Shown here piece after piece: positions 5,996 through 56,193 of a DNA stretch of 64,000 nt (position 1 is its first letter; each line of letters begins with the position of its first letter). Below the pieces are notes generated by a model. It saw only the letters and a list, made by a program, of their open reading frames with translations. It was not told the DNA's origin and ran no database searches. This DNA comes from an uncultured Poribacteria bacterium (GTDB lineage Bacteria > Poribacteria > WGA-4E > WGA-3G): contig CATQHZ020000001.1 in the NCBI GenBank assembly GCA_958296135.2, forward strand, positions 4,832,001 to 4,896,000, in the 5' to 3' direction. The position numbers and the translations under genes were made by a program.

Positions 5996-6057
5996 GTAAA
6001 AACGACATTTATACCGATTGACTCGGATTTTCGGGGTCTAGCACTCAACTCCTTCTC

Positions 6058-24722: not shown

Positions 24723-24777
24723 GCAGCACAAACACCGCAAGCGCGGTTTGCAACCGCGCCTACCGGTCTGGAGGTTT

Positions 24778-50598: not shown

Positions 50599-50722
50599 TT
50601 CATTGACGTAATTTTTTTGGAACTTTTTGTGACTTATGGTGTATAATATTTTCGTAAGTTCATTGACGTAATTTTTTTGGAACTTTTTGTGACTTATGGT
50701 GTATAATATCTTCGTAAGTTCA
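50599..50722 (+). repeat. 60-bp tandem duplication of a promoter-like segment
   Basis: Two near-identical 60-mers, each with TATAAT and an imperfect dyad ACTTATG..CGTAAGT. Confidence 0.85.
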
Positions 50723-50752
50723 ATATCCCTTCTCTTTGAGGTTTGTGGAGCA

Positions 50753-51166
50753 ATGTTGCGAAAACATCGGCAGGTTCTCATCGTCATCATGGGCATCGTC
50801 TACGTCTATACCGTCTGCCCGCTTCTCTGTGCAACTTTAGAACAGAAGTTGTGCCACAGCCAGCAGGCGGAGGCGCAAGCCTCTTGCTGCCAAAAGACGG
50901 AAGCAGCATCCGAAACTGAAACGCCACCCGAAAATGGCGAACTGTGCTGCATCACCGAACTGGAACTCATTCTTCCAGCAGACGATACCTTCAATAGGCA
51001 CGAACTGCCTCTCAATACGATAGGCGTGCTCAGCGAGCGCGATACCGTGATTGCGCAGGTTGTGCAGCAGACTTCTCGCGCACTCTCATTGCCGCATCAT
51101 CTCCTACATCCTGCTCCCCCGAATTATATCCTATCCCGTCGGGGGCCTCCGTCTACCCGTTCTTAA
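50753..51166 (+). CDS. Cys-rich exported leader peptide with a C-terminal RGPP arrest-type motif (DUF2946/CruR-like)
   Basis: Hydrophobic N-terminus; CPLLC, CH, CC and CC; ends SRRGPPSTRS. Confidence 0.75.
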   Translation: MLRKHRQVLIVIMGIVYVYTVCPLLCATLEQKLCHSQQAEAQASCCQKTEAASETETPPENGELCCITELELILPADDTFNRHELPLNTIGVLSERDTVIAQVVQQTSRALSLPHHLLHPAPPNYILSRRGPPSTRS

Positions 51167-51280: not shown

Positions 51281-52303
51281 ATGCAACCCAGAAATTTCAC
51301 GCTTGAAATCAAGCACTATGTCGCCATCTTGGCGATAGTCTCCCTCGGCTTTCTCTCCCTCATCGGGATAAGCCTCGCCGAAGAATACGCTGGCCACGAT
51401 GCGCACCGCGGGCATCAGGCTCATACCGCCGCGGGCATCAATGTCATGCTGCATAGCGAACCGGAAACCGTTCAGGTGGGAACGTCAACGAAACTGACGT
51501 TCCACCTCACCGATGAAAACGGCGAACCTGTCACCGATTTGTTGGTGCATCACGCACGAGTGCTCCATATTCTCGTCGTCAGCGAGAATTTAGGTATCAT
51601 CGGACACATTCACCCCGAAGATTTTGAAGACCGGGATGTCATGGAGGAATTGGAGGGACGCTATACCGTCCACTTCACGTTCCCTGCCGCGGGCCGCTAC
51701 ATTCTCGCCATCGACGTGATGACAGCAGATGCCGAATTCGCGAAATATGTCTACGTTGAGGTCGAGGGCGAATCGAAAATGGGCGAGATGGTTCGCGATT
51801 TCCGCACGGAAAAACCTGCCTTCGGCTATACCGACGAAGGCGGGGACAGATACACAAAGGCGGTATCGGTAACCGATAGCGATTCCGACGCGGCGTATTA
51901 CGTCAAAATGGACGCACCCGACCGGATTAAAGCGGGTGAGAGCGTTCATATCGCTTACCATTTTTCGCGCGATGGGAAACCGCTCACAGACCTGGTGCCG
52001 TTTTTGGATGCACCAATGCACTTCGCAATTGTAAGCACGCGCTTGGACGGTATCATCCATACGCACGGCAGCGTGCCAGCCCCGCACGCGGGCCACAAAA
52101 TGATGCAGCAACGCAACGAACATGCAGCACATCAGAAGCCCGCATCCCGCGGTCACGAGCACCACGGCGGGCTGCCCGATACATTCGGGCCCACCGTGAA
52201 TCTGATGACAACGTTCCCGCAGTCCGGCATTTACCAAATCTTCGGGCAACTCAAGCATGAAGACCGGATTATCTGGTTGAACTTCATGGTTGAAGTGGAA
52301 TAA
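51281..52303 (+). CDS. His-rich periplasmic heavy-metal-binding protein with two Ig-like domains
   Basis: Signal peptide; HHARVLH..HIHP and MH...HTH motifs; FP..GRY and FP..GIY. Confidence 0.8.
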   Translation: MQPRNFTLEIKHYVAILAIVSLGFLSLIGISLAEEYAGHDAHRGHQAHTAAGINVMLHSEPETVQVGTSTKLTFHLTDENGEPVTDLLVHHARVLHILVVSENLGIIGHIHPEDFEDRDVMEELEGRYTVHFTFPAAGRYILAIDVMTADAEFAKYVYVEVEGESKMGEMVRDFRTEKPAFGYTDEGGDRYTKAVSVTDSDSDAAYYVKMDAPDRIKAGESVHIAYHFSRDGKPLTDLVPFLDAPMHFAIVSTRLDGIIHTHGSVPAPHAGHKMMQQRNEHAAHQKPASRGHEHHGGLPDTFGPTVNLMTTFPQSGIYQIFGQLKHEDRIIWLNFMVEVE

Positions 52304-52439
52304 TACCACCGTAGGCGCGGTTGCAAACCGCGCATACGGGAACAGTGTACCCGGGAGGCGCGCTTTGGACGCGCGCAGCAACGAAATGCACGGTTGCAAA
52401 CCGTGCCTCCCGGGGCATGACGCTGAAGGATTACAAAAC

Positions 52440-53528
52440 ATGATAAGTACACGAATTTTATTGGCACTCCTCGCCATGCAACTGATTGTTCTTCCGTACG
52501 GCTTCGCGCAAGAAAGCTGAGGCGCGTGAAGCAATCCCGCCATTCCGCGTAGCGGGATAAGTGAAGTCAGTTTGACTTCAAAGGAGACAGAAAAATTTCA
52601 GGCCGCACTCGGTATGATGCGATGGTTTGACGGACAAGGCGGACATCTCGAAGCAAAAGGGGTTTCGCCTACCGGAGAAGTGATACCTGTCCCTTTGCAC
52701 CGGCACCACGTCACCCTGAACATCCTCCGCATCGATGTTGGGTTAAAATACCAATTCAACTCCGGCTGGATGCTAGAAGCGATTGTGCCGTATGCGATTA
52801 AGGCGCAAGAGGCAACAGTGGAGAAAATTGAAGGCTATCCCATCACCGATACCGAAATGGATGCAATTTTGCGGAGCCGCGATAACCATCATCGAAGCGA
52901 AACCTACACGGGACTCCAAGACGGTGAGGTGTTGCTCGGCTACAACGCGCAAGGACTTCTCCAAAAAAGCGATGTTCTCGCCGCACGCCTCGGCACAACA
53001 GTGCCACTTGGAAGCACGGAGGCAAACCCATGGGAACTCGGTGAGAAGGGGCTGAAGCATCTCCATATCCAGTTCGGCAGCGGCACCTTTAACCCTATTG
53101 CTGAGCTCTCTTATCGCATGCGGCTCTACGGTGGACTCACCGCGAATGTGAACCTTCGCGGCAAGTTTCCGTTCTACGCAAACAGCAAAACCTATCGCGG
53201 TTCAAGGGAACTCACCTATATGGCAGGCGTGCAATACCGATTTACCGATTGGCTCTCTCTGCATGCCAGCTACCTTGGATTCTATCAATCCTATGCATTT
53301 TGGGCAGGGAAACAAGACATTAACAGCGGGCTCCGTTACAGTATTGCATCACTTGGCACTACTGTCAGAACACCTTATGATGCCACGCTGTTGCTAACCG
53401 TCGCGTTACCGTTGCAACAGGAGACGCTATACGACGACAGCAACGCGTTTTTAGACGGAACGTATGCGGAAAGCGACGCATTTGAATTCGGTCCGTTGGT
53501 TTCGTTAACGGTGCTCCACGCATTTTAA
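52440..53528 (+). CDS. Exported beta-barrel-like protein with an N-terminal UxxU (two in-frame TGA codons), probable selenoprotein
   Basis: GAAGGA RBS; signal peptide ending GFA; QES-TGA-GA-TGA-SNP continues in frame into the 52572-53528 ORF; C-terminal Phe. Confidence 0.72.
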
Positions 53529-53539
53529 GGAGATGACAG

Positions 53540-54502
53540 ATGTTTTCTCGAATTTACCGCGCCGCTAGCACAGGGACCCTCCTCGTGCTAGCACTTCTCG
53601 GAAGCATGCTTTCCCAGGGTACAGAGGCGCATGAAACAGAATGGCCGGGACAGAAACTCGCCGCCATCTTCCCGAAGGCGAAGAAATTCGTTCAACGGAG
53701 CGCGGTACTCACACCCGCGAAGAGTGCCGCCATTGAGAAGGAATTAGGCACGAAGCTTCGCGCCGAAGACCAGAAGCCGGTCTTCTACATCCCGATGAAC
53801 GACAAAAAGAAGCCGATGGGATTGGTGCTGTTCATCGACGTACTGGGACCGCGAGGCGTTATTGATGGCGCAGTCGGCCTGGATATGAAAGGCAAAGTGG
53901 TGAAGGTGGCTGTCTACAACCACAACGAATCGGATGCTGTGGTGGCAGACGCATTTCTGAATCAGTTCATCGGCACGGATATTGATAGCACTTTCAACAT
54001 TGGCGAGGACGTGACAGCCGTCGAAGGACACGAGGCCGCGTCGAAAGCCGTCGCCCTGCTCCCGAAAAAGACGCTGGCGATGAGTTACGCGCTCTTCCTC
54101 AAACGCAAACCGAAGCCGAAAAAGGCACCGCACCCTGAACCCCCAACGCCTGACATCAAAGACCTGGGGGAACTCATGATGTTGATGCTAGATGCCTATC
54201 TCGAGGTCGCGGCTTACTTTGACACCGGCGAGGACAAGGCGAAAGCCGTCGCAGCCGCTGAGCAGCTGGCCACCTATGCAAAGCGTATCTCTGACTTTGA
54301 ACCGCCAGAGAACGCCGAGCAGACAGAGGCATACGCCGCCCTGCACGGCACGTTTGTCGAAACGCTCACACAGTTTGCTGAGGCACTTGAAAAAGATGGG
54401 ATTTCTGATGAGACGCGCGCACAGTGGGAAACCATTGAGGAACTCGTCAATCAGGCGCACCACCGGTTTAGTGGGAAGGAAATCGAGCTGGAGGCGTATT
54501 AA
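53540..54502 (+). CDS. Exported FMN-binding-like domain plus helical bundle protein
   Basis: Signal peptide ending TEA-H; G..G.I...VGLD..GKV..V.V...FL.QF.G pattern. Confidence 0.7.
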   Translation: MFSRIYRAASTGTLLVLALLGSMLSQGTEAHETEWPGQKLAAIFPKAKKFVQRSAVLTPAKSAAIEKELGTKLRAEDQKPVFYIPMNDKKKPMGLVLFIDVLGPRGVIDGAVGLDMKGKVVKVAVYNHNESDAVVADAFLNQFIGTDIDSTFNIGEDVTAVEGHEAASKAVALLPKKTLAMSYALFLKRKPKPKKAPHPEPPTPDIKDLGELMMLMLDAYLEVAAYFDTGEDKAKAVAAAEQLATYAKRISDFEPPENAEQTEAYAALHGTFVETLTQFAEALEKDGISDETRAQWETIEELVNQAHHRFSGKEIELEAY

Positions 54503-54669: not shown

Positions 54670-56193
54670 ATGCGCAAAATAACCTTCATTTCCTTACTCA
54701 CACTCCTCTTCTGGGGCGGCATCGCTGAACATTCGGAAACCTTCGCTTTGCCGGCGTTCTACAAAATGTTCCGCGCCAAATATGGATGGGCAGGTGGGTG
54801 CAACGTCTGCCATTCCTCGAAAAAAGGCGGCGACACACCGAACCCCTACGGCAAGGCGTTCCTCCACAACGGCATGAATCTGTCTACCTTCACCCGCATC
54901 GAAGAGGAAGACTCCGACAAAGACGGCTTCAGCAACATCGTGGAGCTCGTCGCCCGCGCCTATCCCGGCGATGCCGCCAGCACCCCCGAAAACGTCCCGC
55001 CAGTCGCTGATGCAGACGAAACAGACGAGGAATTGGCACTCGATGACGAAAATGTCTTTAGTTTTGACGAACCGGCCGCGGAAACCGAAGAGGCAGGCGG
55101 CCTGAATCTCCTCAGCGATGCCTTCGGAAACCTCGTCTTCGGCGGCGCATTGGATATCCGCCGCATCACGCGCGGACAAGATTTACTGCCAGACCGCGGT
55201 AACTGGGACACCGGCACAACGCTCATCCACGTCGCTGAATTCGTCGTGACGACGAGTGTCGGCGAGCATATCAGCATATTGGGCGAGCAACTGTTGACGA
55301 CTTCTCCGCTTGGAACGCAGGTTGCCGATGACCACGGGTTTGTTTACGCCATCCTGACAGGGCTACCGGTTTTACCGAAGGGCGCGGCACTCAAAATCGG
55401 GCGATTTCGGCACACCTTCGGCATTGATACAAAATCGGATGCCGCCGCGAACCCACTCTACAACCTCGTCCGCAAGAATCTCGGTTTTATTTCTGACCGG
55501 GGGATGCAACTCAACGGCTACGCCGGTCCTGTATCGTATGTGCTATCCCTCGCCGATGGTCCTGATTCACTTCGCACCGTGCCGGCGGGAACTGTCTCAT
55601 CTGGGATACGCATTGGCCCGCATGGAAGCGGCGGGGGTGTGCTGAAACCGATTCGCAATAACAGCCCGCCTGTATTCTTGCATCTGAACGGAAACCTGTC
55701 GCTTTGGGGCAAACGCATCTGGCTTGGCGCGTCCTACTTCGATGGCAATAGTTATCCTTTCAATCCCATGAACGGCGATGTGAACCCATCAACACTCGTC
55801 TACAAACGCCGCGTCGGTGTCGCGACAAATTTCAAGGTGTGGCGATTTGACATTGCAGCGGAGTACTCGCGCGGCACCGATACGCAACTCCTGAAATATA
55901 CGGAAAATCCGAGCAGCGCGACGGTGGAGGGATGCTATCTGCACGCCGAACTTCCCTTGACAGAAACCCTAGACGTTCGATTAAAATATGATATATGGAA
56001 TCCGCATACGGAAGCGTATGGGACATTTGTTTTTAACCGAGAACCGGCAGACGAGGTGTGGACAACCCTCGGCGGCGCATTCACGTGGCACTTTACGGAG
56101 GGCGCGGTCGCACGGCTCGTTTACCAAATCAACAACGTTGAAAAGCCGACGCGCAGCGCGGCAATCATCCCACAGCTTTTGGTAGAATTTTAA
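54670..56193 (+). CDS. Monoheme cytochrome c fused to an outer-membrane porin (Cyc2-like architecture)
   Basis: ALPAF...CNVCH...PNPYGKAF..NG; DSDKDGFSN Ca-binding motif; beta-barrel region ending in Phe. Confidence 0.75.
   Translation: MRKITFISLLTLLFWGGIAEHSETFALPAFYKMFRAKYGWAGGCNVCHSSKKGGDTPNPYGKAFLHNGMNLSTFTRIEEEDSDKDGFSNIVELVARAYPGDAASTPENVPPVADADETDEELALDDENVFSFDEPAAETEEAGGLNLLSDAFGNLVFGGALDIRRITRGQDLLPDRGNWDTGTTLIHVAEFVVTTSVGEHISILGEQLLTTSPLGTQVADDHGFVYAILTGLPVLPKGAALKIGRFRHTFGIDTKSDAAANPLYNLVRKNLGFISDRGMQLNGYAGPVSYVLSLADGPDSLRTVPAGTVSSGIRIGPHGSGGGVLKPIRNNSPPVFLHLNGNLSLWGKRIWLGASYFDGNSYPFNPMNGDVNPSTLVYKRRVGVATNFKVWRFDIAAEYSRGTDTQLLKYTENPSSATVEGCYLHAELPLTETLDVRLKYDIWNPHTEAYGTFVFNREPADEVWTTLGGAFTWHFTEGAVARLVYQINNVEKPTRSAAIIPQLLVEF

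Follow-up and report, generated by a model that had tools for sequence, protein, structure and literature searches.

Predicted double-selenocysteine barrels of Candidatus Poribacteria: a conserved UGA pair on an outer-membrane protein with metal-associated relatives

What becomes of a reading frame that meets two UGA codons, 9 nt apart, shortly after a signal peptide? This question is raised by a gene in a 64,000-nucleotide (nt) stretch of DNA from an uncultured Poribacteria bacterium (GenBank assembly GCA_958296135.2, contig CATQHZ020000001.1, positions 4,832,001 to 4,896,000 of the forward strand), which we call the window and whose own numbering we use below. An initial annotation had proposed that two TGA codons at 52518-52520 and 52527-52529 specify a pair of selenocysteines (Sec, U) on an outer-membrane protein. 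Our comparative analysis argues for that proposal: both UGAs are very probably decoded as Sec, and we are fairly confident that positions 52440-53528 of the forward strand form one intact, functional selenoprotein gene for an outer-membrane barrel. The features on which this reading builds are the following.

52425..52430, + strand: Shine-Dalgarno-like GAAGGA, with a 9-nt spacer to the ATG at 52440; read from the sequence, a putative ribosome-binding site
52440..53528, + strand: single gene for protein P0001, 362 codons plus TAA; predicted signal peptide, U-G-A-U motif and beta-barrel, translated with TGA as U
52440..52508, + strand: predicted signal peptide of 23 amino acids, ending in G-F-A; putative cleavage site
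52518..52520, + strand: first TGA (predicted Sec27); among 66 distinct homologous rows, 51 have TGA here and 15 a Cys codon (TGT or TGC)
52527..52529, + strand: second TGA (predicted Sec30); TGA without exception in the 66 distinct rows, replaced by Cys in the CxxC homologues
52596..53525, + strand: predicted beta-barrel domain, residues ~53-361, from an AlphaFold2 model, Foldseek and invariant columns

A conserved UGA pair and the RNA that follows it

The layout of the gene is as the initial annotation described it. The ATG at 52440 follows the GAAGGA at a 9-nt spacer and opens a 23-residue segment (MISTRILLALLAMQLIVLPYGFA) that looks like a signal peptide by eye, using a rule of thumb, and whose hydrophobic core and small residues at -1 and -3 are kept in 65 aligned homologues. 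Past codons 27 and 30, which stand in CxxC spacing, the same frame remains open for 332 further codons to the TAA at 53526-53528. The list of open reading frames (ORFs) made with translation table 11 cuts the gene in two, as had also been noticed, into 52290..52520 and 52572..53528, the latter beginning at a TTG. Homologues nevertheless align across residues 1-362, through both TGAs, and those that contain Cys are contiguous over the same span. The motif, in the context Q-E-S-U-G-A-U-S-N-P, is placed between signal peptide and barrel, and cleavage behind G-F-A would leave a mature protein that begins with Q-E-S-U-G-A-U.

The TGA pair is widely conserved. A six-frame search over 61 genomes (that of the window plus 60 relatives) matched the gene in 54, often in two copies. 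By a hand count, the near-full-length matches (n=87) hold two in-frame TGAs in 66 cases, one in 20 and three in a single case, and none is without one; the matches span four families of the order, with identity as low as 32%. Translation of 66 fetched loci and two fragments gave 67 motif-bearing sequences, or 66 distinct rows, every one of which fits Q-[ED]-[SA]-(U/C)-x-A/G-U-S-N-P. Codon 30 is TGA in all 66 rows; codon 27 is TGA in 51, TGT in 10 and TGC in 5, and the copies with a single TGA read C-P-A-U, C-G-A-U or C-S-A-U (15 distinct rows, the CxxU paralogues). The pair is thus kept in close and distant relatives alike, the point on which, according to the initial annotation, a pseudogene would have given itself away. 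In one orthologue (locus L022, from relative G024) the conserved Trp codon of MMRWFD reads as a further TGA, the third in frame, owing either to a sequencing error or to a nonsense mutation of recent date.

Where Sec is replaced, it is replaced by Cys. A profile search of 1.8 billion representative sequences returned 490 proteins at E<=1e-3, and 17 of the 150 listed reach the N terminus; 15 of these 17, from Bacteroidota and others, have C-x-x-C-x-N-P at the motif site (for example CPACSNP, CAGCRNP and CAACGNP). Together with the CxxU paralogues these are the kinds of homologue that the double-Sec proposal had predicted. The remaining two, the public proteins P0165 (DSWGAWSNP) and P0166 (DACSLWSNP), have W in alignment with Sec, most likely because the gene caller translated TGA as Trp under a code in which it has that meaning; the database would therefore hold mistranslated selenoproteins of the barrel family. 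U-P-A-U forms were also found in two Acidobacteriota loci and one marine genome. We built a tree with the motif columns left out, by a quick method and with midpoint rooting, so that any direction of change taken from it is provisional. On this tree the CxxC forms fall outside the Poribacteria clade (Shimodaira-Hasegawa-like approximate likelihood ratio test, SH-aLRT, 100), UxxU occurs in all four families of the clade, and the CxxU label needs three changes: one for a 14-row paralogue clade and two for single copies nested beside UxxU sisters. As far as the sequences tell, U-x-x-U is the selenium counterpart of C-x-x-C-x-N-P, a motif that is invariant in a wider barrel family without a name.

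The machinery for Sec insertion, whose absence would have told against the proposal, is present in the genome: tRNA-Sec (78 bits), SelA (518 bits), SelB, which adjoins tRNA-Sec, and selD, which has an in-frame TGA of its own at ...KCAG-U-ASK.... Further in-frame TGAs occur in the same genome at C1:3124283-3125128, where three of four tandem HMA domains have one in the metal site (GMT-U-G-x-C), and in another HMA domain at C1:3466067-3466246, within a 527-residue frame. A GUGCA-GGN-UGCAC hairpin lies 17-18 nt downstream of each of these HMA TGAs. The organism uses Sec widely in soft-metal sites.

Sec decoding also calls for structure in the mRNA, and candidate elements follow the UGA pair closely.

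52534..52558, + strand: proximal stem-loop in its long-loop register, ATCCCGC (52534-52540) with GCGGGAT (52552-52558) and an 11-nt loop; 85-88% of alignment cells paired
52542..52558, + strand: proximal stem-loop in its short-loop register, ATTCCGC (52542-52548) with the same 3' arm GCGGGAT and a GUA triloop; 74-86% of cells paired
52562..52580, + strand: distal stem-loop, UGAAGUCA-GUU-UGACUUCA, beginning 32 nt past the second UGA; 94.9% of cells paired

Both hairpins, at 52534-52558 and 52562-52580, had been pointed out in the window itself; they appear in a single-sequence fold (the distal arms being TGAAGTCA and TGACTTCA), and they prove to be conserved and covarying. Pairing was counted on a 67-row alignment, A1 (66 distinct sequences), in which the two helices together are paired in 90.9% of cells as against 24-55% when the partners are slid, far beyond chance. 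Six of the 14 pairs are changed on both sides, with a covariation score that none of the shuffles attains. In the distal stem, the stronger of the two, four of seven pairs are compensatory (A-U to G-C, C-G to U-A), the loop being GTT in 58 of the 66 rows and GGT in 4. Some distal-stem changes alter the peptide (EVSLTS to EVGSTS), as would be expected of selection on the RNA. The two proximal registers share a 3' arm and are about equally supported, both with compensatory changes; the 5' arm of the short one starts 10-14 nt past the second UGA. A third pairing suggested at the outset, between 52501-52509 and 52524-52532, does form in the window but is not conserved: it is paired in 76% of cells, 80 of 500 shuffles reach it, and of its two central pairs one is broken in 33 and the other in 43 of the 66 rows.

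Other measures point to the same region. Third positions of conserved four-fold degenerate codons average 1.11 bits of entropy over codons 27-48 (n=6) versus 1.74 in the rest of the gene (n=44, minimum 1.15), and the 72 nt past the motif have median folding z-scores of -2.2 in UxxU genes (n=50), -2.3 in CxxU genes (n=15) and -1.15 in CxxC genes (n=15). The U-P-A-U genes of Acidobacteriota have both stems rewritten, as CCCUCC/GGAGGG and GGAGCCG/CGGUUCC, and so code for other amino acids there, while the positions of the stems and the distal GUU loop are kept. A canonical bacterial selenocysteine insertion sequence (SECIS; the bSECISearch-type model) has a G in the first two loop positions and an apical loop 16-37 nt from the UGA. 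The proximal GUA loop, ~19 nt from the second UGA and ~28 nt from the first, falls inside that range, and the distal GUU loop, ~40 nt from the second UGA, slightly outside; in the most divergent Poribacteria forms and in those of Acidobacteriota it lies 33-35 nt away. The genome's own selD and several of its GMTUxxC HMA domains have a stem of 5-6 bp, capped by a GGN triloop, 11-18 nt past the UGA, and by this standard the proximal short register fits the second UGA and the long register the first, the distal stem being unusually far.

Our reading of both UGAs as Sec codons rests on the conservation of the TGAs, on Cys as the alternative to them, on the conserved RNA structure and on the presence of the Sec machinery. 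Several observations pull the other way. The kin compared are not independent, so the conservation counts overstate the number of independent observations. Rfam gave no match to the region or to the window, and RNAalifold on the whole 67-row alignment gave two trivial pairs only, neither hairpin. The distal loop stands ~40 nt from the second UGA, where the spacers in the other Sec genes of the genome are 11-18 nt. Finally, CxxU copies, with one UGA to decode, keep both helices, in a comparison of UxxU with CxxU whose columns are blurred by insert-bearing rows. A rule of one hairpin per UGA lacks support, because the CxxU copies keep both hairpins and the proximal registers cannot be told apart.

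The barrel, its gene company and a possible metal role

The outer-membrane part of the initial proposal finds support in structure prediction. AlphaFold2, run on a 65-row alignment, produced a beta-barrel (mean predicted local distance difference test score, pLDDT, 79.6; predicted template-modelling score, pTM, 0.77), and its best Foldseek matches were FapF (E 2.6e-12), the COG4313 channel 4rl8_C (E 9.4e-10, TM 0.54/0.70) and FadL/TodX (E about 1e-9), all at 10-14% sequence identity. The model supports an outer-membrane barrel of the FapF/COG4313/FadL kind with an estimated 12 strands or so. Pfam gave P0001 a sub-threshold OMP_b-brl match only, and no match to PF13557, HMA or CopB; a distant homologue scores 18.3 for PF13557 (cut-off 22), and PF13557 is the precomputed label of two close homologues. 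NCBIfam (E<=0.1) had no match for P0001, NF041115 and NF041027 included, and none for the Cys forms. Across the wide family, at 24-48% identity, the invariant residues are both Cys/Sec positions, N32, P33, H69, H89, H150, H151, R152, E154, D161, H207, H209 and W288. A lipoprotein reading was considered for distant 'A-C-A-x-C' forms, but the closer forms and the window gene have no lipobox.

What such a barrel might do is suggested by its neighbours. All 20 loci from outside the Poribacteria have an HMA-containing gene nearby, most often directly upstream; in 15 of the 16 loci with a barrel match beginning at locus position 6001, this gene starts 667-1023 nt upstream of the barrel. It encodes an exported protein in which an HMA domain with GM[ST]CxxC is joined to a thioredoxin domain with WCGPC, an architecture recognised by Pfam in L083, L088, L110 and L105 and by motifs in 8 loci; NCBIfam had no model above cut-off for it. 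This fusion is paired with CxxC or UxxU barrels in Bacteroidota and Acidobacteriota (L083-L099, L105, L110). Locus L083 is a complete mer-type operon (ArsR, MerT-HMA, HMA, HMA-Pyr_redox that is MerA-like by its domains, HMA-Trx and the barrel), L088 holds a P-type ATPase with HMA, and genes for ArsR-like regulators (8 loci) and CsoR-like proteins (7 loci, called from sequence) recur in the non-Poribacteria set. In one protein, P0133, a CxxC barrel is itself fused to an HMA domain (43 bits). Because of this company, we assign the barrel family to soft-metal handling systems, and we lean towards a role of this kind (Hg/Cu/Ag-type) for the barrel in the window.

Within the Poribacteria we compared 61 loci (60 fetched and the window), with CxxU in 34, UxxU in 20 and the motif not located in 7. 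Genes that flank the CxxU paralogues encode a Cys-rich membrane protein (38 loci), a YHS-like His-rich protein (25), an OEP outer-membrane factor (24), an MsrP-like protein (21) and a CusB-type adaptor with four HMBD repeats (18). The UxxU gene of the window shares three neighbour families with these loci, namely the Cys-rich, the YtkA-like His-rich and an FMN_bind-like family, and two of them lie upstream of it.

50696..51166, + strand: gene for a Cys-rich membrane protein; homologues directly upstream of CxxU paralogues, in 38 of 61 Poribacteria loci (tblastn, clustering)
51281..52303, + strand: gene whose His-rich, exported product has a YtkA-like domain (Pfam PF13115, 32 bits; cut-off 25.9); homologues downstream of some CxxU paralogues

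The Cys-rich family (50696-51166; L113:5382-5822), without a match in Pfam or NCBIfam, has CPxLC in a transmembrane helix followed by CH, CC and CC motifs. On the other side of the barrel, 53540-54502 encodes an FMN_bind-like plus four-helix protein and precedes a gene at 54670-56193 (+ strand), whose 507-residue product has a signal peptide, a CNVCH haem-c motif and an extended C-terminal portion, possibly a barrel; the product matches the GEGP diheme model NF041762 in part (58.7 bits against a cut-off of 300). The spacer upstream of the Sec gene contains two copies of a hairpin motif, CGGTTGCAAACCG (stem CGGTT/AACCG, loop GCA), at 52318-52330 and 52391-52403, with another on the minus strand at 24744. 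There are 36 occurrences in the genome where fewer than 3 would be expected for the 11-mer core, and the motif looks like a dispersed intergenic repeat of the repetitive extragenic palindrome (REP) type.

The metal reading also has evidence to answer. In the neighbouring genus-level group the UxxU orthologues are flanked by genes for an aldo-keto reductase and for a solute-binding protein, the latter read as such from sequence alone, and no metal genes are near them. A search of the window's own genome with the query used did not find the HMA-thioredoxin partner, giving weak thioredoxin-domain matches only, and a search for the MerA family there gave matches below cut-off. In the AlphaFold2 model N-terminal residues 21-48, which include the motif, have pLDDT under 50-60, so their placement relative to the barrel is not fixed. 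A conserved sequence upstream of the other-genus orthologues, considered as an RNA element, turned out to be the 3' end of the aldo-keto reductase gene in another frame; Rfam found nothing in that stretch.

The rival account that survives best takes the U-x-x-U/C-x-x-C pair for a redox centre instead of a metal ligand: a diselenide/dithiol switch might gate the channel, or the pair might be serviced by the thioredoxin half of the HMA-thioredoxin protein. Redox motifs typically have CxxC spacing, the partner conserved upstream in the non-Poribacteria loci has its WCGPC domain, and the MsrP-like gene found near 21 CxxU loci is of the molybdopterin oxidoreductase type. However, the same partner always carries an HMA domain too, and one barrel is fused to HMA alone; the operons are of mer, P-type ATPase and Cus-like kinds, and six invariant histidines suggest metal ligation. 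We therefore consider a primarily redox function rather unlikely, while noting that redox and metal roles are compatible.

Returning to metal handling by a Sec-containing barrel, we can present a proposal for how the product might be made and used. The organism's SelB and tRNA-Sec would deliver Sec at both UGAs, directed by the mRNA structure immediately downstream. The product would be exported, probably lose its 23-residue signal peptide and take its place in the outer membrane; Q-E-S-U-G-A-U-S-N-P would be the flexible N-terminal end of the mature chain, and the Sec pair (mature positions 4 and 7) would lie at the periplasmic mouth or in the channel lumen. There the pair, probably with the six invariant histidines (His69, His89, His150, His151, His207 and His209), could bind a thiophilic metal ion or pass it on. 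With the UGAs as early as codons 27 and 30, failed decoding would cost the cell only a signal peptide.

A more speculative extension, which we advance with more doubt than conviction, is that the two stem-loops form a tandem SECIS for two Sec residues only 9 nt apart, and that the resulting bis-selenolate is a very-high-affinity site for the capture or hand-off of Hg, Cu or Ag, making the HMA-thioredoxin partner unnecessary in Poribacteria. Such a tandem element could work in one of two ways. There might be one hairpin, or one SelB loading site, for each UGA; or the structure might shift register, the common 3' arm re-pairing with the second 5' arm as the ribosome advances.

Other readings of the two UGAs

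Would the two codons be better explained without Sec? Near-cognate readthrough or a variant code might put Trp, Gly or Cys there, and the W at these sites in the public calls P0165 and P0166 could be taken that way. However, TGA is an ordinary stop in this organism, closing 15 of the 44 window ORFs of at least 250 amino acids, and it also terminates several barrel genes in relatives. The genome has the full Sec machinery, the homologues have Cys at these positions and not Trp or Gly, and the conserved downstream structure is what Sec decoding requires. Readthrough of this kind is, in our judgement, very improbable.

The gene might instead be a pseudogene, with both TGAs nonsense mutations. The table-11 reading does split the frame, and the same genome has a decayed second copy of the barrel at C1:632519-633145 (locus L078), which lies in three pieces in different frames, is 66-73% identical to P0001 and has no N-terminal motif. 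Against this, the two TGAs of the window gene are kept across the 66 distinct rows in the proportions given above, in four families and in other phyla too; Cys is the only alternative at their sites; the remaining frame is intact and conserved at the protein level; and synonymous sites past the TGAs are constrained. We give decay of the window gene hardly any credence.

Equally hard to credit is a split into two genes, in which a short leader peptide would stop at the first TGA and the barrel would start from an internal TTG or ATG. Public callers do predict ~302-residue proteins from an internal Met, but such a barrel would have no signal peptide, and the segment from the TGAs to that Met is conserved in frame and, in every CxxC homologue, runs on unbroken from the signal peptide. 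Of the 362 relatives returned by a word-indexed protein search, all 120 that were listed are 290-327 residues long, cover 84-91% of the query and lack the N terminus; the few named ones among them are called 'hypothetical protein, Candidatus Poribacteria'. Shortened calls of this kind are just what a gene caller gives at a conserved stop.

Comparison with known systems

Read as a selenoprotein gene, the locus represents a new selenoprotein family of Candidatus Poribacteria, with an unusual arrangement of tandem UGAs and two hairpins, on an uncharacterised, metal-associated barrel family. The family occurs in most sampled lineages of sponge-associated Poribacteria, and public gene calls truncate it, among the matches listed. 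The C-x-x-C-x-N-P barrels, for which Pfam and NCBIfam have no model, are tightly linked to HMA-thioredoxin proteins, which suggests that Hg/Cu handling has a component in the outer membrane. With its UGAs three codons apart and a pair of conserved hairpins behind them, the gene would offer a natural test case for SelB at closely spaced Sec codons. If tandem SECIS elements and a bis-selenolate site were both true, they would amount to an outer-membrane step of soft-metal traffic that we did not find described in the literature searched, as far as the parts of it available to us extend.

In the available parts of two surveys, the term UxxU is used only for Prx-like, HMA-type and FmdB proteins, and 'outer membrane' only for MtrB/PioB (PMC13188914; PMC9312934). 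The accessible text of the GOS paper mentions UxxU only in the Prx-like family, that of Haft's preprint describes Sec pairs in a transporter, and the part of the mer review at hand mentions neither an outer-membrane barrel nor the HMA-thioredoxin partner. Literature searches that combined Poribacteria with selenocysteine, or selenoprotein with outer membrane, beta-barrel or SECIS, returned nothing on the barrel family, which supplementary tables may list under a generic name.

The closest precedent for the chemistry lies in the Sec forms of MerT/CopZ and of P-type ATPase metal sites, and in the HMA-type UxxU protein NF041115 (PMC13188914; PMC9312934). In these proteins Sec likewise replaces the Cys of a CxxC soft-metal site, including as a double U-x-x-U. 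P0001 differs in having no HMA fold and in bearing its motif on the N-terminal tail of what is predicted to be an outer-membrane barrel.

For the barrel, the nearest selenoprotein is GSU2204 of the MtrB/PioB family (NF041027), an outer-membrane barrel with one Sec (PMC13188914). The likeness is that of an outer-membrane beta-barrel with selenocysteine. GSU2204 differs in its single Sec, in a much larger barrel and in its cytochrome or electron-conduit context, and it shares no common sequence family with P0001. MtrB also has an N-terminal CxxC.

SelL, a eukaryotic and marine UxxU selenoprotein that is soluble and has a thioredoxin fold, had been offered at the outset as the classic precedent. 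The analogy stands for the U-x-x-U spacing, which could form a diselenide, and goes no further: the fold here is a predicted membrane barrel instead of a thioredoxin fold, with the motif in a tail modelled at low confidence.

Among barrels without Sec, COG4313/Phenol_MetA_deg (PF13557), FapF and FadL/TodX are the best structural matches to the P0001 model. COG4313, FapF and FadL channels all use an N-terminal segment as a plug. Their known substrates are hydrophobic compounds or peptides, and they lack a CxxC. The copper-resistance barrels PcoB/CopB, finally, resemble the present family in being outer-membrane barrels encoded inside metal-resistance clusters; their N-terminal regions are rich in Met and His, where the family described here has CxxC or, in its predicted selenium form, UxxU.

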